64,000 bases of DNA. It comes from Escherichia coli. Its GTDB lineage: Bacteria > Pseudomonadota > Gammaproteobacteria > Enterobacterales > Enterobacteriaceae. A program made the translations under genes and the position numbers. Position 1 is the first letter of the stretch; every line of letters begins with the position of its first letter. The notes beneath the pieces are model-generated. The model was not told where the DNA came from, did not search any database, and was given only the letters and a program-made list of their open reading frames with translations. Where the stretch lies: NCBI RefSeq assembly GCF_030013595.1, contig NZ_CP122768.1. The stretch is one strand, 5' to 3'. Of this stretch, positions 1 through 59,144 are shown in pieces.

Positions 1-370
1 AATTGCCCGTATCGCCGTCATCTTAATTTTCATTATTTTTGGTTTTCCCAAAATGATGGGCTTTGACGGTACGGTCCAATATATGGCCTCGCTGGGCGCG
101 CCGATGCCGATGCTGGCAGCTATTATTGCGGTAGTTATGGAAGTGCCCGCCGCGATATTAATCGTGCTTGGCTTTTTCACCCGTCCGCTGGCGGTGCTGT
201 TTATTTTCTACACGCTGGGTACGGCGGTGATTGGTCACCATTACTGGGATATGACCGGCGATGCGGTTGGGCCAAATATGATTAATTTCTGGAAGAATGT
301 CAGTATCGCTGGCGCATTCCTGCTGTTGGCAATTACCGGGCCGGGGGCAATTTCTCTCGATCGGCGTTAG
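1..370 (+). CDS. DoxX-family inner-membrane protein (YphA-like), C-terminal part; N-terminus lies upstream of the window
   Basis: ORF 53..370 is in frame with the window start; hydrophobic helices and the [10 protein letters not shown]...[15 protein letters not shown] region are typical of DoxX proteins. Family call is from memory. Confidence 0.55.
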
Positions 371-376
371 GAAAGA

Positions 377-395
377 TGCCGGATGCGGCGTGAAC
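377..395. repeat. Left half of a REP (palindromic unit) split by the IS insertion
   Basis: gccggatgcggcgtgaac at 378-395 joined to gccttatccggcc at 1832-1844 reconstructs the canonical REP GCCGGATGCGGCGTGAACGCCTTATCCGGCC. Confidence 0.7.
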
Positions 396-13080: not shown

Positions 13081-13112
13081 ACAAAATCCCAGATGCGCCC
13101 CTAAAAAGCGCA

Positions 13113-13160
13113 CGGACCGTCCCCTCGCCCCTCTGGGGAGAGGGTTAGGGTGAGGGGAAC
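13113..13160. repeat. GC-rich interspersed palindromic repeat (boxC-like), copy 1
   Basis: cggaccgtcccctcgcccctctggggagagggttagggtgaggggaac; a near-identical copy occurs at 27843-27891. Confidence 0.55.
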
Positions 13161-13182
13161 ATACAGCATCCGGCGATCACCA

Positions 13183-24484: not shown

Positions 24485-24910
24485 ATGGCGCACGACGAAC
24501 AATGGCTCACCCCGCGTCTGCAAACGGCGGCAACGCTGTGTAACCAGACGCCTGCCGCAACGGAATCTCCGCTGTGGCTGGGGGGGGATCTGGGCACCTG
24601 CGATGTGGTGTCGATGGTTGTCGACCGCGACGGTCAGCCGGTGGCGGTATGCCTCGACTGGGCCGATGTGGTCCGCGACGGCATCGTCTGGGATTTCTTC
24701 GGTGCGGTCACCATTGTTCGTCGCCATCTCGACACCCTCGAGCAGCAATTCGGTCGCCGTTTTAGCCATGCGGCGACCTCATTTCCTCCAGGTACGGACC
24801 CGCGTATTTCCATCAACGTGCTGGAATCTGCCGGGCTGGAAGTGAGCCATGTGCTGGATGAGCCAACCGCAGTCGCGGATCTGCTGCAACTGGACAACGC
24901 AGGCGTAGTG
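24485..24910 (+). pseudogene. eutJ: eutJ 5' fragment (codons 1-142), interrupted by IS10
   Basis: The reading frame runs straight into the IS10 outside end at 24911; 24485..24910 plus 26249..26659 gives 278 codons with a continuous ...NAGVV|DIGGGTTGIAIV... junction. Confidence 0.85.
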
Positions 24911-24956
24911 CTGATGAATCCCCTAATGATTTTGGTAAAAATCATTAAGTTAAGGT

Positions 24957-25025
24957 GGATACACATCTTGTCATATGATCAAATGGTTTCGCGAAAAATC
25001 AATAATCAGACAACAAGATGTGCGA
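24957..25025 (-). ncRNA. Predicted IS10 antisense RNA-OUT (pOUT transcript), placed by position within IS10
   Basis: Coordinates inferred from the known IS10 layout (transposase start at IS nt 108, matching the ATG at 25018); not independently verified. Confidence 0.4.
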
Positions 25026-26226
25026 ACTCGATATTTTACACGACTCTCTTTACCAATTCTGCCCCGAATTACACTTAAAACGACTCAACAGCTTAACGTT
25101 GGCTTGCCACGCATTACTTGACTGTAAAACTCTCACTCTTACCGAACTTGGCCGTAACCTGCCAACCAAAGCGAGAACAAAACATAACATCAAACGAATC
25201 GACCGATTGTTAGGTAATCGTCACCTCCACAAAGAGCGACTCGCTGTATACCGTTGGCATGCTAGCTTTATCTGTTCGGGCAATACGATGCCCATTGTAC
25301 TTGTTGACTGGTCTGATATTCGTGAGCAAAAACGACTTATGGTATTGCGAGCTTCAGTCGCACTACACGGTCGTTCTGTTACTCTTTATGAGAAAGCGTT
25401 CCCGCTTTCAGAGCAATGTTCAAAGAAAGCTCATGACCAATTTCTAGCCGACCTTGCGAGCATTCTACCGAGTAACACCACACCGCTCATTGTCAGTGAT
25501 GCTGGCTTTAAAGTGCCATGGTATAAATCCGTTGAGAAGCTGGGTTGGTACTGGTTAAGTCGAGTAAGAGGAAAAGTACAATATGCAGACCTAGGAGCGG
25601 AAAACTGGAAACCTATCAGCAACTTACATGATATGTCATCTAGTCACTCAAAGACTTTAGGCTATAAGAGGCTGACTAAAAGCAATCCAATCTCATGCCA
25701 AATTCTATTGTATAAATCTCGCTCTAAAGGCCGAAAAAATCAGCGCTCGACACGGACTCATTGTCACCACCCGTCACCTAAAATCTACTCAGCGTCGGCA
25801 AAGGAGCCATGGGTTCTAGCAACTAACTTACCTGTTGAAATTCGAACACCCAAACAACTTGTTAATATCTATTCGAAGCGAATGCAGATTGAAGAAACCT
25901 TCCGAGACTTGAAAAGTCCTGCCTACGGACTAGGCCTACGCCATAGCCGAACGAGCAGCTCAGAGCGTTTTGATATCATGCTGCTAATCGCCCTGATGCT
26001 TCAACTAACATGTTGGCTTGCGGGCGTTCATGCTCAGAAACAAGGTTGGGACAAGCACTTCCAGGCTAACACAGTCAGAAATCGAAACGTACTCTCAACA
26101 GTTCGCTTAGGCATGGAAGTTTTGCGGCATTCTGGCTACACAATAACAAGGGAAGACTTACTCGTGGCTGCAACCCTACTAGCTCAAAATTTATTCACAC
26201 ATGGTTACGCTTTGGGGAAATTATGA
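25018..26226 (+). CDS. IS10 transposase
   Basis: 402 aa, MCELDILHDSLYQFCPELHLKRLNSL...HGYALGKL; identical at protein level to the copy at 31470..32678. Confidence 0.93.
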   Translation: MCELDILHDSLYQFCPELHLKRLNSLTLACHALLDCKTLTLTELGRNLPTKARTKHNIKRIDRLLGNRHLHKERLAVYRWHASFICSGNTMPIVLVDWSDIREQKRLMVLRASVALHGRSVTLYEKAFPLSEQCSKKAHDQFLADLASILPSNTTPLIVSDAGFKVPWYKSVEKLGWYWLSRVRGKVQYADLGAENWKPISNLHDMSSSHSKTLGYKRLTKSNPISCQILLYKSRSKGRKNQRSTRTHCHHPSPKIYSASAKEPWVLATNLPVEIRTPKQLVNIYSKRMQIEETFRDLKSPAYGLGLRHSRTSSSERFDIMLLIALMLQLTCWLAGVHAQKQGWDKHFQANTVRNRNVLSTVRLGMEVLRHSGYTITREDLLVAATLLAQNLFTHGYALGKL

Positions 26227-26239
26227 GGGGATCTCTCAG

Positions 26240-26659
26240 GGCGTAGTGGATATCGGCGGCGGCACTACCGGCATTGCCATCGTGAAAAAGGGCAAGGTGA
26301 CGTACTCGGCGGATGAAGCCACTGGCGGACATCACATCTCTCTGACTCTCGCCGGAAATCGCCGTATTTCGCTGGAAGAGGCGGAGCAGTACAAGCGCGG
26401 TCACGGTGAAGAGATTTGGCCTGCGGTGAAACCGGTGTACGAAAAAATGGCGGACATTGTCGCCCGGCATATTGAAGGGCAGGGCATTACTGATTTATGG
26501 CTGGCGGGCGGCTCCTGTATGCAACCGGGCGTGGCGGAACTGTTTTGCAAACAATTCCCGGCGTTACAGGTGCATCTACCGCAGCACAGTTTGTTTATGA
26601 CCCCGCTGGCGATCGCCAGTAGCGGGCGAGAGAAAGCGGAGGGGATCTATGCAAAATGA
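26240..26659 (+). pseudogene. eutJ: eutJ 3' fragment (starts with the duplicated 9 bp)
   Basis: In frame with the 5' fragment after removing the IS and one TSD copy; Hsp70/actin-like ATPase motif DIGGGTT. Confidence 0.85.
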
Positions 26660-27836
26660 ATTGCAGACCGCGCTCTTTCAGGCGTTCGATACCCTGAATC
26701 TGCAACGGGTAAAAACATTTAGCGTTCCACCAGTGACGCTTTGCGGTCCGGGCGCGATGAGCAGTTGCGGGCAGCAAGCGCAAACGCGTGGGCTGAAACA
26801 TCTGTTCGTGATGGCAGACAGCTTTTTGCATCAGGCGGGGATGACCGCCGGGCTGACGCGTAGCCTGGCCGTTAAAGGTATCGCCATGACGCTCTGGCCA
26901 TGTCCGGTGGGCGAACCGTGCATCACCGACGTGTGTGCAGCCGTGGCGCAGTTGCGTGAATCGGGTTGCGATGGGGTGATCGCGTTTGGCGGCGGCTCGG
27001 TGCTGGATGCAGCAAAAGCCGTGGCGTTGCTGGTGACGAACCCGGATAGCACGCTGGCAGAGATGTCAGAAACCAGCGTTCTGCAACCGCGCCTGCCGTT
27101 GATTGCCATTCCAACTACCGCCGGAACCGGTTCTGAAACCACCAACGTAACGGTGATTATCGACGCGGTGAGCGGGCGCAAGCAGGTGTTAGCCCACGCC
27201 TCGCTGATGCCGGATGTGGCGATTCTCGACGCTACGCTGACCGAAGGCGTGCCGTCGCATGTCACGGCGATGACCGGTATCGACGCGTTAACCCATGCTA
27301 TTGAAGCGTACAGCGCGCTGAACGCTACACCGTTTACCGACAGCCTGGCGATTGGCGCAATCGCGATGATTGGTAAATCACTGCCGAAAGCGGTGGGCTA
27401 CGGTCATGACCTTGCCGCGCGCGAGAGCATGTTGCTGGCTTCATGCATGGCGGGAATGGCGTTTTCCAGTGCGGGGCTTGGGTTATGCCACGCGATGGCG
27501 CATCAGCCAGGGGCGGCGCTGCATATTCCGCACGGTCTGGCGAACGCTATGTTGCTGCCAACGGTGATGGAATTTAACCGGATGGTTTGTCGTGATCGGT
27601 TTAGCTTGGTTGGTCGGGCGCTGCGAACTAAAAAATCCGACGATCGTGACGCTATTAACGCGGTAAGTGAGCTGATTGCGGAAGTCGGGATTGGTAAACG
27701 ACTGGGCGATATTGGTGCGACATCTGCGCATTACGGCGCATGGGCGCAGGCCGCGCTGGAAGATATTTGTCTGCGCAGCAACCCGCGTACCGCCAGCCTG
27801 GAGCAGATTGTCGGCCTGTACGCAGCGGCGCAATAA
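26649..27836 (+). CDS. eutG: Iron-containing alcohol dehydrogenase EutG
   Basis: 395 aa, Fe-ADH family. Confidence 0.88.
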   Translation: MQNELQTALFQAFDTLNLQRVKTFSVPPVTLCGPGAMSSCGQQAQTRGLKHLFVMADSFLHQAGMTAGLTRSLAVKGIAMTLWPCPVGEPCITDVCAAVAQLRESGCDGVIAFGGGSVLDAAKAVALLVTNPDSTLAEMSETSVLQPRLPLIAIPTTAGTGSETTNVTVIIDAVSGRKQVLAHASLMPDVAILDATLTEGVPSHVTAMTGIDALTHAIEAYSALNATPFTDSLAIGAIAMIGKSLPKAVGYGHDLAARESMLLASCMAGMAFSSAGLGLCHAMAHQPGAALHIPHGLANAMLLPTVMEFNRMVCRDRFSLVGRALRTKKSDDRDAINAVSELIAEVGIGKRLGDIGATSAHYGAWAQAALEDICLRSNPRTASLEQIVGLYAAAQ

Positions 27837-27842
27837 AAGTGT

Positions 27843-27940
27843 ACGGACAGTCCCCTCGCCCCTTTGGGGAGAGGGTTAGGGTGAGGGGAACAGAGTCGCG
27901 CCGGTGCAAACAATTACCCTCACCCCGGCCCCTCGGCTTC
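27843..27940. repeat. GC-rich interspersed palindromic repeat (boxC-like), copy 2, with an extra inverted arm
   Basis: acggacagtcccctcgcccctttggggagagggttagggtgaggggaac, then ttaccctcaccccggcccctcggc, which is partly complementary to it. Confidence 0.55.
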
Positions 27941-28005
27941 CAGAGTGAGGGAAAAACCCACTTTCAGCATTGGCAATAAATAACAACTAACAGGGAGTAA
28001 AGGCG

Positions 28006-29232
28006 ATGGGAATTAACGAAATCATCATGTACATCATGATGTTCTTTATGCTGATAGCTGCCGTAGACAGGATCCTGTCGCAGTTCGGCGGTTCTGCTCG
28101 TTTCCTCGGTAAGTTCGGTAAAAGTATCGAAGGATCCGGCGGGCAGTTTGAAGAAGGCTTTATGGCGATGGGCGCACTGGGCCTGGCGATGGTTGGTATG
28201 ACCGCGCTGGCACCTGTTCTGGCCCACGTACTCGGACCGGTGATTATCCCGGTTTACGAAATGCTCGGTGCAAACCCGTCAATGTTCGCCGGAACACTGC
28301 TGGCGTGCGATATGGGCGGGTTCTTCCTCGCCAAAGAGCTGGCGGGCGGCGACGTAGCAGCGTGGCTATACTCTGGGTTAATTCTCGGGTCGATGATGGG
28401 GCCAACGATTGTGTTTTCCATTCCGGTGGCGCTCGGCATTATCGAACCTTCTGACCGTCGTTATCTGGCGCTCGGCGTGCTGGCGGGCATTGTGACCATT
28501 CCGATTGGCTGTATTGCTGGTGGTCTGGTTGCTATGTACTCCGGTGTGCAGATCAACGGTCAGCCGGTGGAATTCACCTTTGCGCTGATCCTGATGAACA
28601 TGATCCCGGTACTTATCGTTGCGGTGCTGGTGGCGCTGGGGCTGAAATTCATCCCGGAAAAAATGATCAACGGCTTCCAGATCTTCGCCAAATTCCTCGT
28701 TGCATTGATCACCCTCGGTCTTGCTGCCGCGGTAGTGAAATTCCTCCTTGGCTGGGAACTGATCCCGGGCCTTGATCCTATCTTTATGGCCCCTGGCGAC
28801 AAACCCGGTGAAGTGATGCGCGCCATTGAAGTTATCGGTTCTATCTCCTGCGTTCTGTTAGGGGCGTATCCGATGGTGCTGCTGCTGACCCGCTGGTTTG
28901 AAAAACCGCTGATGAGCGTCGGTAAAGTGCTGAATATGAACAACATCGCGGCAGCCGGCATGGTGGCAACGCTTGCCAACAACATCCCGATGTTCGGCAT
29001 GATGAAGCAGATGGATACCCGCGGCAAAGTCATCAACTGCGCCTTCGCCGTTTCCGCTGCTTTCGCCCTGGGCGACCACTTAGGCTTCGCCGCTGCCAAC
29101 ATGAACGCCATGATTTTCCCGATGATTGTCGGCAAATTGATCGGCGGCGTAACGGCGATTGGCGTGGCGATGATGCTGGTGCCAAAAGAAGACGCGACCG
29201 CGGCTAAAACCGAAGCGGAGGCACAATCGTGA
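28006..29232 (+). CDS. eutH: Ethanolamine permease EutH
   Basis: 408 aa polytopic membrane protein. Confidence 0.88.
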   Translation: MGINEIIMYIMMFFMLIAAVDRILSQFGGSARFLGKFGKSIEGSGGQFEEGFMAMGALGLAMVGMTALAPVLAHVLGPVIIPVYEMLGANPSMFAGTLLACDMGGFFLAKELAGGDVAAWLYSGLILGSMMGPTIVFSIPVALGIIEPSDRRYLALGVLAGIVTIPIGCIAGGLVAMYSGVQINGQPVEFTFALILMNMIPVLIVAVLVALGLKFIPEKMINGFQIFAKFLVALITLGLAAAVVKFLLGWELIPGLDPIFMAPGDKPGEVMRAIEVIGSISCVLLGAYPMVLLLTRWFEKPLMSVGKVLNMNNIAAAGMVATLANNIPMFGMMKQMDTRGKVINCAFAVSAAFALGDHLGFAAANMNAMIFPMIVGKLIGGVTAIGVAMMLVPKEDATAAKTEAEAQS

Positions 29233-30632
29233 ACACTCGCCAGCTACTGAGCGTCGGTATCGATATCGGCACCACCACCACCCAGGTGATTTTCTCCCAC
29301 CTGGAGCTGGTTAACCGTGCGGCGGTGTCGCAGGTGCCGCGCTACGAATTCATCAAACGCGAAATTAGCTGGCAAAGCCCGGTGTTCTTTACCCCTGTCG
29401 ATAAACAGGGTGGTTTAAAAGAAGCGGAACTGAAAACCTTAATCCTCGAGCAATATCAGGCTGCGGGCATTGCGCCGGAAAGCGTTGATTCTGGTGCCAT
29501 CATTATCACCGGTGAAAGCGCAAAAACCCGCAACGCTCGCCCGGCGGTGATGGCGCTCTCCCGGTCGCTGGGCGATTTTGTCGTCGCCAGCGCCGGGCCG
29601 CATCTTGAATCCGTGATCGCCGGACACGGTGCCGGGGCGCAAACCCTTTCTGAACAACGGCTGTGTCGGGTCCTGAATATCGATATCGGCGGTGGCACCG
29701 CGAACTACGCCCTGTTCGATGCCGGAAAAATCAGCGGCACTGCCTGCCTCAACGTCAGCGGTCGCCTGCTGGAAACCGACAGCCAGGGGCGCGTGGTTTA
29801 CGCTCATAAACCGGGGCAGATGATTGTGGATGAGTGCTTCGGTGCCGGTACTGACGCCCGTTCGCTGACTGGCGGGCAGCTGGTGCAGGTTACCCGCCGG
29901 ATGGCAGAGCTGATTGTCGAAGTGATTGACGGAACGCTCTCGCCGCTCGCGCAGGCATTGATGCAAACCGATTTGCTGCCCGCAGGTGTTACGCCCGAAA
30001 TCATTACGCTTTCTGGCGGGGTAGGCGAATGTTATCGCCACCAGCCCACCGACCCGTTCTGTTTTGCCGATATCGGCCCGCTTCTGGCAACGGCGCTGCA
30101 TGACCATCCGCGTCTGCGTGAGATGAACGTGCAGTTTCCGGCGCAAACCGTGCGCGCCACGGTGATTGGCGCGGGTGCTCATACCCTTTCGCTCTCTGGC
30201 AGCACAATCTGGCTGGAGGGCGTACAACTGCCGCTGCGCAATTTGCCAGTGGCGATCCCGATTGATGAAACGGATCTGGTCAGTGCCTGGCAACAGGCGC
30301 TGATTCAACTGGATCTTTGCCCCAAAACTGACGCGTACGTGCTGGCGCTTCCCGCCTCGCTGCCTGTGCGTTACGCCGCGGTACTGACGGTCATCAACGC
30401 GCTGGTCGATTTCGTCGCGCGTTTTCCGAATCCGCATCCCCTGCTGGTGGTGGCCGGGCAGGACTTTGGTAAAGCTCTGGGCATGTTGTTGCGCCCACAG
30501 CTACAACAACTCCCGTTGGCAGTCATTGACGAAGTGATTGTCCGCGCGGGGGACTATATCGACATTGGTACGCCTCTTTTTGGCGGATCGGTTGTGCCGG
30601 TGACGGTGAAATCACTCGCATTTCCTTCCTGA
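29229..30632 (+). CDS. eutA: Ethanolamine ammonia-lyase reactivase EutA
   Basis: 467 aa; ATGA-type 4-bp overlap with eutH. Confidence 0.88.
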   Translation: MNTRQLLSVGIDIGTTTTQVIFSHLELVNRAAVSQVPRYEFIKREISWQSPVFFTPVDKQGGLKEAELKTLILEQYQAAGIAPESVDSGAIIITGESAKTRNARPAVMALSRSLGDFVVASAGPHLESVIAGHGAGAQTLSEQRLCRVLNIDIGGGTANYALFDAGKISGTACLNVSGRLLETDSQGRVVYAHKPGQMIVDECFGAGTDARSLTGGQLVQVTRRMAELIVEVIDGTLSPLAQALMQTDLLPAGVTPEIITLSGGVGECYRHQPTDPFCFADIGPLLATALHDHPRLREMNVQFPAQTVRATVIGAGAHTLSLSGSTIWLEGVQLPLRNLPVAIPIDETDLVSAWQQALIQLDLCPKTDAYVLALPASLPVRYAAVLTVINALVDFVARFPNPHPLLVVAGQDFGKALGMLLRPQLQQLPLAVIDEVIVRAGDYIDIGTPLFGGSVVPVTVKSLAFPS

Positions 30633-30643
30633 GGGAACGACTT

Positions 30644-31456
30644 ATGAAACTAAAGACCACATTGTTCGGCAATGTATATCAGTTTAAGGATGTAAAAGAG
30701 GTGCTGGCTAAAGCCAACGAACTGCGTTCGGGGGATGTGCTGGCGGGCGTTGCTGCGGCAAGTTCACAGGAGCGCGTGGCGGCAAAGCAGGTGTTGTCGG
30801 AAATGACCGTAGCGGACATCCGCAATAATCCGGTGATTGCCTATGAAGATGACTGCGTGACGCGGCTGATTCAGGACGACGTTAACGAAACGGCCTATAA
30901 CCAGATTAAAAACTGGAGCATCAGCGAACTGCGTGAGTATGTGCTGAGCGATGAAATCAGCGTGGACGACATTGCCTTTACCCGCAAAGGGCTGACCTCG
31001 GAAGTGGTGGCGGCGGTAGCGAAGATTTGCTCCAACGCGGACCTGATCTACAGCGCGAAGAAAATGCCGGTGATCAAAAAGGCCAATACCACCATCGGTA
31101 TTCCGGGCACCTTTAGCGCCCGTTTGCAGCCGAACGATACCCGTGACGACGTGCAAAGTATCGCCGCGCAAATCTACGAAGGGCTTTCCTTCGGGGTGGG
31201 CGATGCGGTGATTGGCGTTAACCCGGTGACTGACGACGTGGAAAACTTAAGCCGCGTGTTGGATACCATTTATGGCGTGATCGACAAATTCAACATCCCA
31301 ACTCAGGGCTGCGTACTGGCGCACGTCACCACCCAGATCGAAGCGATCCGTCGTGGCGCACCAGGCGGGCTGATTTTCCAGAGTATCTGTGGCAGCGAAA
31401 AAGGGCTGAAAGAGTTTGGCGTAGAGCTGGCGATGCTCGATGAAGCACGCGCAGTG
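30644..31456 (+). pseudogene. eutB: eutB 5' fragment (ethanolamine ammonia-lyase large subunit), interrupted by IS10
   Basis: MKLKTTLFGNVYQFKDVKEVLAKANELRSGDV...; frame enters the IS10 inside end at 31457. 30644..31456 plus 32795..33343 gives 454 codons (453 aa). Confidence 0.88.
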
Positions 31457-31469
31457 CTGAGAGATCCCC

Positions 31470-32678
31470 TCATAATTTCCCCAAAGCGTAACCATGTGTG
31501 AATAAATTTTGAGCTAGTAGGGTTGCAGCCACGAGTAAGTCTTCCCTTGTTATTGTGTAGCCAGAATGCCGCAAAACTTCCATGCCTAAGCGAACTGTTG
31601 AGAGTACGTTTCGATTTCTGACTGTGTTAGCCTGGAAGTGCTTGTCCCAACCTTGTTTCTGAGCATGAACGCCCGCAAGCCAACATGTTAGTTGAAGCAT
31701 CAGGGCGATTAGCAGCATGATATCAAAACGCTCTGAGCTGCTCGTTCGGCTATGGCGTAGGCCTAGTCCGTAGGCAGGACTTTTCAAGTCTCGGAAGGTT
31801 TCTTCAATCTGCATTCGCTTCGAATAGATATTAACAAGTTGTTTGGGTGTTCGAATTTCAACAGGTAAGTTAGTTGCTAGAACCCATGGCTCCTTTGCCG
31901 ACGCTGAGTAGATTTTAGGTGACGGGTGGTGACAATGAGTCCGTGTCGAGCGCTGATTTTTTCGGCCTTTAGAGCGAGATTTATACAATAGAATTTGGCA
32001 TGAGATTGGATTGCTTTTAGTCAGCCTCTTATAGCCTAAAGTCTTTGAGTGACTAGATGACATATCATGTAAGTTGCTGATAGGTTTCCAGTTTTCCGCT
32101 CCTAGGTCTGCATATTGTACTTTTCCTCTTACTCGACTTAACCAGTACCAACCCAGCTTCTCAACGGATTTATACCATGGCACTTTAAAGCCAGCATCAC
32201 TGACAATGAGCGGTGTGGTGTTACTCGGTAGAATGCTCGCAAGGTCGGCTAGAAATTGGTCATGAGCTTTCTTTGAACATTGCTCTGAAAGCGGGAACGC
32301 TTTCTCATAAAGAGTAACAGAACGACCGTGTAGTGCGACTGAAGCTCGCAATACCATAAGTCGTTTTTGCTCACGAATATCAGACCAGTCAACAAGTACA
32401 ATGGGCATCGTATTGCCCGAACAGATAAAGCTAGCATGCCAACGGTATACAGCGAGTCGCTCTTTGTGGAGGTGACGATTACCTAACAATCGGTCGATTC
32501 GTTTGATGTTATGTTTTGTTCTCGCTTTGGTTGGCAGGTTACGGCCAAGTTCGGTAAGAGTGAGAGTTTTACAGTCAAGTAATGCGTGGCAAGCCAACGT
32601 TAAGCTGTTGAGTCGTTTTAAGTGTAATTCGGGGCAGAATTGGTAAAGAGAGTCGTGTAAAATATCGAGTTCGCACAT
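31470..32678 (-). CDS. IS10 transposase
   Basis: 402 aa, identical to the copy at 25018..26226. Confidence 0.93.
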   Translation of the reverse strand: MCELDILHDSLYQFCPELHLKRLNSLTLACHALLDCKTLTLTELGRNLPTKARTKHNIKRIDRLLGNRHLHKERLAVYRWHASFICSGNTMPIVLVDWSDIREQKRLMVLRASVALHGRSVTLYEKAFPLSEQCSKKAHDQFLADLASILPSNTTPLIVSDAGFKVPWYKSVEKLGWYWLSRVRGKVQYADLGAENWKPISNLHDMSSSHSKTLGYKRLTKSNPISCQILLYKSRSKGRKNQRSTRTHCHHPSPKIYSASAKEPWVLATNLPVEIRTPKQLVNIYSKRMQIEETFRDLKSPAYGLGLRHSRTSSSERFDIMLLIALMLQLTCWLAGVHAQKQGWDKHFQANTVRNRNVLSTVRLGMEVLRHSGYTITREDLLVAATLLAQNLFTHGYALGKL

Positions 32679-32739
32679 CTTGTTGTCTGATTATTGATTT
32701 TTCGCGAAACCATTTGATCATATGACAAGATGTGTATCC
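32671..32739 (+). ncRNA. Predicted IS10 antisense RNA-OUT of copy 2, placed by position
   Basis: Mirror of the copy-1 placement; pOUT points toward the outside end at 32785 and onward into eutB'-eutC. Confidence 0.4.
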
Positions 32740-32785
32740 ACCTTAACTTAATGATTTTTACCAAAATCATTAGGGGATTCATCAG

Positions 32786-33343
32786 CGCGCAGTGGGCGCG
32801 GAGTTCAACCGTATCGCCGGGGAAAACTGTCTCTACTTCGAAACCGGGCAAGGCTCGGCGCTGTCCGCTGGCGCGAACTTCGGCGCAGACCAGGTGACGA
32901 TGGAAGCGCGTAACTATGGGCTGGCGCGTCATTACGATCCGTTTATCGTCAACACCGTGGTCGGTTTTATTGGGCCGGAGTATCTCTACAACGACCGCCA
33001 GATTATCCGTGCGGGCTTAGAAGATCACTTTATGGGCAAGCTGAGCGGCATCTCGATGGGCTGTGACTGCTGCTACACCAACCACGCTGACGCTGATCAG
33101 AACCTCAACGAAAACCTGATGATCCTGCTCGCCATCGCAGGCTGTAACTACATCATGGGGATGCCGCTGGGCGATGACATCATGCTCAACTATCAGACCA
33201 CCGCATTCCACGACACTGCCACTGTGCGTCAGTTACTCAACCTGCGCCCGTCACCGGAGTTTGAACGCTGGCTGGAAAGCATGGGCATTATGGCAAACGG
33301 TCGCCTGACCAAACGGGCGGGCGATCCGTCACTGTTCTTCTGA
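32786..33343 (+). pseudogene. eutB: eutB 3' fragment (starts with the duplicated 9 bp)
   Basis: ...RAVGAEFNRIAGENCLYFETGQG... continues the EutB frame and ends at the TGA at 33341-33343. Confidence 0.88.
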
Positions 33344-40031: not shown

Positions 40032-41015
<984 letters not shown>

Positions 41016-58157: not shown

Positions 58158-59144
58158 ATGATGCAGGATTTGCGTCTGATATTAATCATTGTTGGCGCGA
58201 TCGCCATAATCGCTTTACTGGTACATGGTTTCTGGACCAGCCGTAAAGAACGATCTTCTATGTTCCGCGATCGGCCATTAAAACGAATGAAGTCAAAACG
58301 TGACGACGATTCTTATGACGAGGATGTCGAAGATGATGAGGGCGTTGGTGAGGTTCGTGTTCACCGCGTGAATCATGCCCCGGCTAACGCCCAGGAGCAT
58401 GAGGCTGCTCGTCCGTCGCCGCAACACCAGTACCAACCGCCTTATGCGTCTGCGCAGCCGCGTCAACCGGTCCAGCAGCCGCCTGAAGCGCAGGTATCGC
58501 CGCAACATGCTCCGCGTCCAGCGCAGCCGGTGCAGCAGCCTGCCTATCAGCCGCAGCCTGAACAGCCGTTGCAGCAGCCAGTTTCGCCACAAGTCGCGTC
58601 AGCGCCGCAGCCAGTGCATTCAGCACCGCAACAGGCACAACAGGCTTTCCAGCCTGCAGAACCCGTAGCGGCACCACAGCCTGAGCCTGTAGCGGAACCG
58701 GCTCCAGTTATGGATAAACCGAAGCGCAAAGAAGCGGTGATTATCATGAACGTCGCGGCGCATCACGGTAGCGAGCTAAACGGTGAACTGCTTCTTAACA
58801 GCATTCAACAAGCGGGCTTCATTTTTGGCGATATGAATATTTACCATCGTCATCTTAGCCCGGATGGCAGCGGCCCGGCGTTATTTAGCCTGGCGAATAT
58901 GGTGAAACCGGGAACCTTTGATCCTGAAATGAAGGATTTCACTACTCCGGGTGTCACTATCTTTATGCAGGTACCTTCTTACGGTGACGAGCTGCAGAAC
59001 TTCAAGCTGATGCTGCAATCTGCGCAGCATATTGCCGATGAAGTGGGTGGTGTAGTGCTTGACGATCAGCGCCGTATGATGACTCCGCAGAAATTGCGCG
59101 AGTACCAGGACATCATCCGCGAAGTCAAAGACGCCAACGCCTGA
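58158..59144 (+). CDS. zipA: Cell-division protein ZipA (TM anchor, P/Q-rich linker, FtsZ-binding domain)
   Basis: 328 aa from [26 protein letters not shown]...; ORF track extends 17 codons upstream to 58107. Confidence 0.9.

Follow-up and report, generated by a model that had tools for sequence, protein, structure and literature searches.

Two separate IS10 insertions flank a segment of the chromosomal eut operon in Escherichia coli

Results

The window analysed here, a 64-kb stretch of Escherichia coli DNA (contig NZ_CP122768.1), contains a eut operon in which eutJ and eutB are each interrupted by a copy of IS10 (Table 1). A repeat search revealed a single inverted repeat pair in the window, at 24910–26239 and 31457–32786, which is 100% complementary with 5217 nt between its halves; the 1330th base of the repeat is a chance match of the flanks, and the IS10 elements proper are 1329 bp each. 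The 5217-bp core comprises the 3' part of eutJ, eutG, eutH, eutA and the 5' part of eutB, a gene content that agrees with the annotation of relatives, and together with both IS10 arms it amounts to 7875 bp. A first-pass annotation had described the two copies as full length, with identical transposases; when 24911–26239 was aligned with the reverse complement of 31457–32785, as it had proposed, the match was 100% over 1329 bp. Assembly polishing could have forced part of this identity.

Table 1. Features of the IS10-flanked eut segment
Feature	Position	Strand	Description
eutJ 5' part	24485..24910	+	Codons 1–142 of 278, cut by copy A; collinear with annotated eutJ of HCP5S3_I2; ORF continues into IS10
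Target-site duplication 1 (GGCGTAGTG, eutJ)	24902..24910 and 26240..26248	.	Perfect 9-bp direct repeat; present once in relatives' empty site
IS10 copy A	24911..26239	+	1329 bp, IS10-Right type; outside end 24911, inside end 26239; 100% identical to copy B
RNA-OUT antisense RNA gene, copy A	24956..25025	-	Points outward (leftward); Rfam RF00240, 98.8 bits, E 3e-20
IS10 transposase ORF, copy A	25018..26226	+	402 aa, intact
eutJ 3' part	26240..26659	+	Collinear with relatives' annotation
eutG	26649..27836	+	Intact, 395 aa
eutH	28006..29232	+	Intact, 408 aa
eutA	29229..30632	+	Intact, 467 aa
eutB 5' part	30644..31456	+	Codons 1–271 of 453, cut by copy B; collinear with relatives
Target-site duplication 2 (CGCGCAGTG, eutB)	31448..31456 and 32786..32794	.	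Perfect 9-bp direct repeat
IS10 copy B	31457..32785	-	1329 bp, IS10-Right type; inside end 31457, outside end 32785
IS10 transposase ORF, copy B	31470..32678	-	402 aa, intact
RNA-OUT antisense RNA gene, copy B	32671..32740	+	Points outward (rightward), to eutB 3' part and eutC; Rfam RF00240, 98.8 bits
eutB 3' part	32795..33343	+	Collinear with relatives; 183-aa fragment called on 12 contigs of other assemblies

The outside end of the left copy (CTGATGAATCCCC...) lies at 24911 and that of the right copy at 32785; the inside ends (CTGAGAGATCCCC...) of both copies point to the eut core and the outside ends away from it. Both transposases are of the IS4-family DDE type and match the model NCBIfam NF033591 with 404 bits (cut-off 152), and RF00240 at both outside ends places an RNA-OUT gene opposite each transposase start. 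GATC (Dam) sites occur in IS10 at nt 67 and nt 1320 only. Roberts et al. are said to have reported, in 1985, a Dam site within the IS10 inside end. The overlap of a Dam site with the -10 region of pIN has been described (PMC5006887), as has the nature of IS10R as the mobile arm, with a length of 1329 bp (PMC11148124; PMC5006887), and IS10 outside ends alone suffice for the paired-ends complex (PMC3159471).

Neither window copy differs at any of its 1329 bp from the IS10-Right-type arm of the Tn10 carried by E. coli BLR(DE3) (NZ_CP020368.1), an identity of 100%. The other Tn10 arm of that strain shows 10 differences from the window copy, including nt 24, 25 and 27 of the outside end, and V266I in the transposase. 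The transposases of the window copies, the BLR(DE3) Tn10 arm and the KFu021 copy are annotated as, or translate to, WP_001339197.1. Copies were assigned to the IS10-Left or IS10-Right type using outside-end sequences that we take to be those of the two arms; the typing rests in addition on the comparison with Tn10 of BLR(DE3) and on PMC11148124. The first-pass annotation had likened the pair, in opposite orientation with outside ends outward, to Tn10, and this is the layout of Tn10 in BLR(DE3). Their identity to IS10R, together with the recent insertions in this lineage, suggests that both copies are competent for transposition.

A perfect 9-bp duplication brackets each copy individually. None encloses the unit as a whole, the outer flanks GGCGTAGTG and CGCGCAGTG mismatching at 2 of 9 positions. 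A perfect repeat of 1.3 kb together with two duplications of 9/9 cannot be a product of chance. IS10 inserts at sites that resemble NGCTNAGCN, the consensus reportedly given by Halling and Kleckner (1982). Both target sites agree with the core consensus GCTNAGC at 4/6 positions, which ranks them among the best 4.3% of 9-mers, and eut has 676 sites that match equally well or better. Both copies thereby display a 9-bp duplication at a consensus-like site, as IS10 insertions do.

In silico removal of both IS10 copies yielded the uninterrupted operon of a 99.94%-identical relative, HCP5S3_I2, in which the exact empty-site 60-mers are present and the alignment blocks overlap by 9 bp. Both sites are likewise empty in GCA_012931135.1, whose core is 100% identical. 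In GCA_021649405.1, only eutB carries IS10 and eutJ is intact (278 aa), with 100% identity over 10.9 kb, while GCA_036246605.1 and GCA_008326365.1 have contigs of 5.4–5.5 kb that comprise the core and, on each side of it, an IS10 inside end, and thus contain both insertions. The comparison with related genomes suggested by the first-pass annotation has therefore produced strains with no insertion, with one (eutB) and with both, and from this stepwise series of near-identical strains it follows that the copies arrived separately, eutB first; the order is argued from parsimony. The eutB insertion is also the older and more widespread of the two, since its outside-end junction product occurs on 12 contigs. 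The same intermediate would also result if the eutJ copy had been precisely excised in an ancestor with both insertions, but precise excision of IS10 is rare. That the two copies came as separate insertions, as the first-pass annotation had proposed, is thus upheld by three independent lines: their individual duplications, the empty-site 60-mers in the 99.94% relative and the natural intermediate GCA_021649405.1. The opposite pattern, a duplication shared by the outer ends only, which the first-pass annotation had named as the sign of joint arrival, is absent here. It was seen in two positive controls that did arrive as units, namely a plasmid-borne IS10-fosA5 unit and a short IS10L/IS10R pair, each with one duplication, at the outer ends only.

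Among draft assemblies, the inside-end junction of copy B was seen at 3 loci and its outside-end junction at 1 locus, and the 285-aa EutB'-IS10 chimera is present. The outside-end junction in eutJ is known from the window alone, other assemblies supporting the eutJ insertion by its inside-end junction only; exact-pattern scans for it gave 0 matches in genome contigs and 0 in metagenome contigs. An exact look-up of the 197-aa EutJ'-IS10 chimera found none on record, likely because draft contigs stop inside IS10 ahead of the stop codon. When contigs ending at this junction were sought via the identical EutE protein, the look-up yielded nothing but long contigs, all of them with eutJ intact. The orientation of the core, inverted or not, is not visible in draft assemblies.

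The same double insertion is absent among 5,426 complete E. coli genomes, in which the two records covered to 80% or more carry a single IS10 elsewhere in eut, and none of these genomes has the eut core at a second site. Of 72,556 plasmids, 0 true plasmids carried the core, and only mislabelled chromosomes and ordinary Klebsiella eut loci were returned. The unit was accordingly found in no more than one genomic context, and the data examined hold no signs of excision, inversion or rearrangement of the pair.

The closest complete relative contains about 17 IS10 copies (17 chromosomal places). In simulations at a load of 17–19 copies, a neighbouring pair this close arose with P = 0.29–0.35, and one that was also in the present orientation with P = 0.08–0.10. 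The collection contains 4,436 chromosomal IS10 places, of which, by our estimate, roughly 13 would fall in eut by chance. We rejected the idea that eut is an IS10 hotspot: the observed cases do not exceed the chance expectation, and the targets have only 4/6 matches, of which there are hundreds in eut. The IS10 pair in eut is an ordinary by-product of an IS10-rich genome.

A strain with eutB::IS10 is predicted to be Eut-negative, with ethanolamine utilisation lost. In further E. coli strains, IS10 insertions occur in eutQ, in eutE and in the interval separating eutS from eutP. A near-identical sister strain whose eut operon is free of IS10 lacks 1 bp of eutB, a deletion present on 2 contigs. 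A search of the literature on IS10 insertions in this operon returned nothing relevant. We also considered whether eut was already decaying in this clade, as the annotation of the closest complete relative gives its eutE an internal stop, and rejected this: the eutE and nudK stops of that genome are probably nanopore artefacts, because both are C>T changes at CCAGG Dcm sites and the remaining 28 differences lie off such sites. The yfeR stop in the same genome is also C>T (CAG to TAG); the reading from Dcm context covers eutE and nudK only.

Discussion

The best explanation for this locus, which we hold with high confidence, is that two separate cut-and-paste insertions of IS10 took place in the chromosomal eut operon of an IS10-rich E. 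coli lineage. On this reading IS10 first entered eutB at codon 271, duplicating CGCGCAGTG and destroying the large subunit of ethanolamine ammonia-lyase. Later, in a sub-lineage, IS10 entered eutJ at codon 142 in the opposite orientation, duplicating GGCGTAGTG. The Tn10 geometry around the 5217-bp core, with outside ends outward and inside ends inward, is then an accidental outcome.

That the whole 7.9-kb structure came as one composite transposon or one horizontally transferred block might be suggested by a geometry that is the same as that of Tn10, and IS10 pairs that moved as units do exist. We nevertheless give this practically no credence: the core is native eut DNA, collinear with and 99.96–100% identical to that of relatives without IS10, the outer flanks differ while each copy has a perfect duplication of its own, and a natural single-insertion intermediate exists, so that the duplication pattern and the intermediate already refute it. 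Identical 1.3-kb repeats are difficult to assemble, and the outside-end junction in eutJ is without independent confirmation, which could point to an assembly artefact in which one or both IS10 copies are misplaced or the core is arbitrarily oriented. Such an artefact is most improbable, however, as three of the four junctions recur in independent draft assemblies and the perfect duplications pair only in the orientation given here.

A refinement of the two-insertion explanation, not an alternative to it, is a local hop after replication, in which the eutB copy left one sister chromosome and inserted 5.2 kb away in the other, which retained its resident eutB copy; the mechanism, and not chance, would then account for how near the two copies are. 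The copies are identical and separated by 5.2 kb, in a genome that measures about 5.3 Mb, and IS10 is activated by hemimethylation after replication, all of which would fit a local hop. So would the preference of the IS10 transposase for action in cis (PMC5006887, where Dam regulation of IS10 is also cited). Yet IS10 copies in unrelated genomes (KFu021, BLR(DE3)) are 100% identical as well, so that identity cannot name the donor, and with 17–19 copies, chance would place two as near to each other as these in about 30% of genomes. We regard the hop as possible but doubtful. Selection for loss of ethanolamine catabolism in the clone, as opposed to neutral IS traffic, appears still less likely. 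Two insertions within one operon, the 1-bp eutB deletion in the sister strain and the IS10 insertions elsewhere in eut in other E. coli could be read in this way, but with eutB already broken the eutJ hit brings no further loss of function and makes better sense as a neutral event in an operon that no longer worked. Moreover, the roughly 13 insertions expected in eut by chance are not fewer than the handful observed, and the internal eutE stop discussed above probably arose as an artefact of nanopore sequencing.

The product of these two insertions is a potential composite transposon. Judging from their sequence, both copies appear to have all that IS10 requires, namely intact ends, the IHF region of the outside end, transposase, RNA-OUT and both Dam sites, so that the 7875-bp structure could transpose as Tn10 does, by excision and insertion via its two outside ends. 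RecA recombination between the two inverted 1.3-kb arms might also invert it, and its inside ends might serve in rearrangements; mobilisation or inversion of the core, as the first-pass annotation had suggested, is plausible. That annotation had further envisaged deletion by IS10–IS10 recombination; this does not hold, since homologous recombination between inverted copies yields inversion only, and deletion of the core would require transposase-mediated intramolecular events. A bolder reading is that a composite has been caught at birth, the eutJ copy being a short-range sister-chromosome hop of the eutB copy and the pair being active and able to carry eutG-eutH-eutA to new sites. We consider this improbable; if true, the locus would allow the formation and first movements of IS10 composites to be measured in a natural setting, and strains with empty sites, a single insertion and the double insertion are all in public collections.

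The structure is real and was correctly interpreted in the first-pass annotation, but it is ordinary. It matters little beyond this strain, and nothing in it challenges what is known of IS10 or Tn10. It does mark a segment of 5.2 kb as liable to inversion and to rearrangement by IS10, a point to consider when this lineage is assembled or typed, and it provides a clean natural case of the first step in the capture of chromosomal DNA by an IS10 pair, with ancestor and intermediate preserved.

Compared with IS10-Right (NCBI annotation: IS4-like element ISVsa5 family), to which the window copies are 100% identical, as they are to the KFu021 copy, there is no difference at the sequence level; the insertion sites alone are new. 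With Tn10, which consists of IS10-Left, a tetracycline-resistance core and IS10-Right, the eut unit shares two inverted 1329-bp IS10 copies with outside ends outward, transposase, RNA-OUT, Dam sites and the chemistry of 9-bp duplication, and its 7875 bp are similar to the 9147 bp of Tn10. In contrast to Tn10, its core is native chromosomal eut DNA and not tet genes, both arms are of the presumably active IS10-Right type, the two arms are flanked by separate duplications in place of a single surrounding one, and it is known from one locus only, without selectable cargo. The short IS10L/IS10R pair of MDR_56 (NZ_CP019906.1) also lies in E. coli chromosomal DNA with its outside ends outward, but one of its arms is Left-type and the other Right-type, its core measures only 493 bp, and its one duplication, CGCTCAGTG, lies at the outer ends; the single duplication and the Left and Right arms identify it as a Tn10 derivative inserted as a unit, not as two insertions. 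The record NZ_CP019906.1 is labelled a plasmid yet carries the chromosomal genes ypfM to tmcA. ISApl1-mcr-1-ISApl1 (Tn6330; PMC5821093) is likewise a composite of two copies of the same IS around captured DNA, but differs in IS family and mechanism, in its proven mobility and in its resistance cargo.

The spread of Klebsiella-derived fosA genes has been tied to IS10-flanked cassettes (PMC10352792). Like the eut unit, the fosA5/fosA6/fosA10 plasmid cassettes (for example, pHKU1, NC_022374.1) contain a chromosome-derived segment between two identical inverted IS10 copies. The fosA5 unit differs in its opposite geometry, with inside ends outward, in carrying a selectable gene, in its presence on conjugative plasmids of several species, and in having one 9-bp duplication (GGCTAAACG) at its outer ends, which shows that the arms and the gene between them moved together. 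What is seen in eut resembles the first stage, still in situ, of such fosA-type cassette capture, the same route by which the Klebsiella fosA genes arrived on plasmids.

Architecture and identity of the IS10 pair

The window has a single long repeat: inverted arms at 24910-26239 and 31457-32786 that are 100% complementary and lie 5217 nt apart. Trimmed to the elements, 24911-26239 (copy A, in eutJ) and the reverse complement of 31457-32785 (copy B, in eutB) are identical at 1329 bp each, and no further IS10 sequence is present within the 64-kb window. Copy A starts with its outside end, CTGATGAATCCCCTAATGATTTTGG..., and finishes with its inside end, ...GGGGATCTCTCAG; copy B is its mirror image, and the outside ends of both point outward. 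The first-pass annotation had described two full-length copies with identical transposases in the geometry of Tn10, with inside ends toward the eut core and a separate 9-bp duplication at each copy, and the alignment, terminal sequences and flanking repeats bear it out.

Features of the two IS10 copies
Feature	Position	Strand	Sequence or score	Placement
9-bp perfect direct repeat	24902-24910 + 26240-26248		GGCGTAGTG	flanks copy A
9-bp perfect direct repeat	31448-31456 + 32786-32794		CGCGCAGTG	flanks copy B
RNA-OUT (Rfam RF00240)	24956-25025	minus	98.8 bits	directed out via copy A outside end
RNA-OUT (Rfam RF00240)	32671-32740	plus	98.8 bits	directed out via copy B outside end

Each copy has an intact 402-aa ORF that matches the IS4-family transposase model NF033591 (404 bits). 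GATC occurs in the element only at nt 67 and nt 1320, the former being the Dam site overlapping the pIN -10 region (PMC5006887). One Tn10 arm of E. coli BLR(DE3) is 100% identical to the window IS10; the second shows 10 differences, including outside-end nt 24, 25 and 27 and transposase V266I, and the IS10 copy of NIID080884 has the same 10 plus 6 others. The 1329-bp IS10-Right arm of Tn10 is active and able to move independently; IS10-Left is reported to be inactive (PMC11148124; PMC5006887). Given this description and the identity to one BLR(DE3) arm, copies A and B are both, judged by sequence, of the active IS10-Right type, which NCBI labels 'ISVsa5 family'. The sequence features that define IS10 are present in both.

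From yphA/dapE the window extends along the E. coli chromosome through maeB and eutS-eutR as far as xapA. Copy A interrupts eutJ after codon 142 of 278 and copy B interrupts eutB after codon 271 of 453; the ORFs of the remaining eut genes in the window are full-length. The core between the copies comprises eutJ', eutG, eutH, eutA and eutB'. The eutG-eutH spacer (window 27836-28006) measures 170 bp in this lineage versus about 116 bp in E. coli KFu021. A 58-bp stretch within it resembles a REP/BIME-type repeat; its identity is 93% with window 13104-13161 and 88-90% with sequences from several plasmids.

Separate arrival and order of insertion

With each IS10 and one of its two duplicated 9-mers deleted in silico, the resulting empty-site 60-mers were both found exactly in HCP5S3_I2, a pig isolate that is the closest complete genome (~99.94% identical to the window across 59 kb). 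Its alignment blocks with the window overlap by exactly 9 bp at each insertion site. Look-ups of the chimeric truncated proteins located draft assemblies that form a stepwise series. In GCA_012931135.1 the eutJ and eutB sites are both empty and the core is 100% identical. GCA_021649405.1, 100% identical to the window along 10.9 kb, has an intact eutJ (278 aa) and eutB::IS10 junctions at the same bases as the window. The 5.4-5.5-kb contigs of GCA_036246605.1 and GCA_008326365.1 consist of the core with an IS10 inside end terminating both sides, and these strains therefore have both insertions. Precise excision of the eutJ copy, instead of sequential gain, would be a less parsimonious account of this series. 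Together with the diagnostic 183-aa EutB C-terminal fragment of eutB::IS10, present on 12 contigs, the series points to sequential gain: the eutB insertion predates, and is more widespread than, the eutJ insertion, which followed in a sub-lineage.

The whole element was also queried against plasmids; the eut core has no match there, so IS10 pairs around other cargo were retrieved, and these served as controls. The 3,974-bp IS10-fosA5-IS10 unit has a common insertion context in pHKU1 (NC_022374.1) and p12949-FIIY (NZ_MH909344.1), with inside ends outward and one duplication, GGCTAAACG, at the outer ends only; it therefore transposed via its inside ends. In a short MDR_56 pair, IS10L-type and IS10R-type arms surround a 493-bp core with their outside ends outward, and a single outer duplication, CGCTCAGTG, is present; the pair is therefore a deletion derivative of Tn10 that inserted as one unit. 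Its record (NZ_CP019906.1, 'plasmid unnamed5', 29 kb), although filed as a plasmid, carries the chromosomal genes ypfM, dapE, ypfN, ypfH and tmcA. A shared 9-bp duplication at the outer ends only, which the first-pass annotation named as the sign of arrival as a unit, is present in both controls, each of which did arrive that way. The window pair is the reverse: 2 of 9 positions mismatch between its outer flanks, and a separate repeat accompanies each arm. With the exact empty sites in HCP5S3_I2 and the eutB-only strain GCA_021649405.1, the earlier claim of two separate insertions, not one composite, holds.

Several differences were seen in these relatives. The eutB IS10 of GCA_021649405.1 (L012 nt 76) has A, not G, at IS10 nt 107 (window 32679), directly before the transposase ATG and within the RNA-IN/RNA-OUT pairing region; this A is one of the differences typical of IS10-Left. 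In GCA_012931135.1, a near-identical sister strain whose eut genes are free of IS10, eutB has lost 1 bp (CC to C; L013 ~5918; window ~32817) at 23 bp from the IS10 target site. The deletion splits EutB into 304 + 147 aa and is probably real, because the 147-aa product is present on 2 contigs. The 'internal stop' annotations of eutE, nudK and yfeR in HCP5S3_I2 are all C>T, CAG to TAG (window 23599, 11819 and ~62953). The 2 of 3 that were checked lie in CCAGG Dcm sites, the other 28 regional differences lying outside such sites; the stops are probably nanopore methylation miscalls, and the genes probably not pseudogenes.

An inversion breakpoint forms the left edge of the window. The segment at window 1-395, comprising the yphA 3' end and half of a REP element, matches exactly, in reverse complement, a relative's yphA region that is ~97.5 kb distant. 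IS1397 (IS3 family, 1432 bp, ~396-1827) joins this segment to the REP element that separates ypfH from ypfN. Neither breakpoint site has an IS in that relative, and other genomes have IS1397 at one or other of them. A deletion was excluded because the interval contains the essential genes hisS, ispG and der. An IS200C-type tnpA between yfeY and yfeX, present in the closest relative (L003 33016-33723) and in a chicken strain, is missing in the window (~40098-40102). In zipA, the window (58460-58514) has ~54 bp extra versus the closest relative, probably because the repetitive linker region varies in length.

Proximity of the two insertions

Of 5,426 complete E. coli genomes, 1,967 contain IS10, at up to ~45 places each; the HCP5S3_I2 chromosome has it at 17 places. 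When 17-19 copies were placed at random on 5.27 Mb, two neighbours lay this close or closer in 29-35% of simulated genomes, and in 8-10% they also had this orientation. Both target sites agree with the IS10 core consensus at 4 of 6 positions, and eut has 676 sites at least as good. IS10 has inserted independently in other strains, into eutQ, into eutE and into the gap between eutS and eutP. Given 4,436 chromosomal IS10 places across the collection, we estimate that ~13 eut insertions are expected by chance. Because of the simulated proximity, the common target sites and this chance expectation, the data require no hotspot, selection or local hopping, although the eutJ copy may still have arisen by a local hop from the eutB copy.

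In a chicken E. coli strain, Z1323CEC0004 (NZ_CP148483.1), which has IS10 at ~38 places, one copy lies between eutS and eutP (duplication TACGAGGCA) and a second within IS1 in a CPZ-55-like island between eutA and eutB (duplication CGCTACGCA). They share one orientation, with ~12.4 kb between them, and eutR has a frameshift.

Potential for mobility

IS10 outside ends are able to synapse with each other (PMC3159471), and both transposase genes are intact; the pair thus appears from its sequence to have every feature for Tn10-like behaviour, namely two IHF-competent outside ends and two intact transposase genes. Competing events would include movement of one or other IS10 by itself, rearrangement via the inside ends, and RecA-mediated recombination of the 1.3-kb inverted arms that inverts the core. 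Of the IS10-IS10 recombination outcomes proposed earlier, inversion remains plausible and deletion does not, since recombination between inverted arms gives inversion. The duplications match up as assembled, so the assembled molecule is the non-inverted state. With ~17 or more IS10 copies, multicopy inhibition by RNA-OUT (PMC5006887) should damp all transposase-dependent events. The suggested search for the eutJ'GHAB' segment elsewhere gave no whole unit or second core copy in 5,426 complete E. coli genomes and no eut core on true plasmids in a collection of 72,556; these searches thus revealed no sign that the structure has moved.

Comparison with known systems

The pair is real, was read correctly at first pass and is an ordinary outcome of high IS10 load. 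What modest interest it has lies in the survival of ancestor, intermediate and final state together in public assemblies. The closest known systems are Tn10 and the IS10-flanked fosA5, fosA6 and fosA10 cassettes. The eut pair shares the architecture of a Tn10-type composite, but it has no single outer duplication and is not found in more than one context, and so lacks both features that mark a transposon in its own right. The fosA cassettes mobilised Klebsiella chromosomal DNA (PMC10352792); by analogy, the eut structure, although without their selectable cargo, looks like the in-situ first stage of a fosA-type capture.
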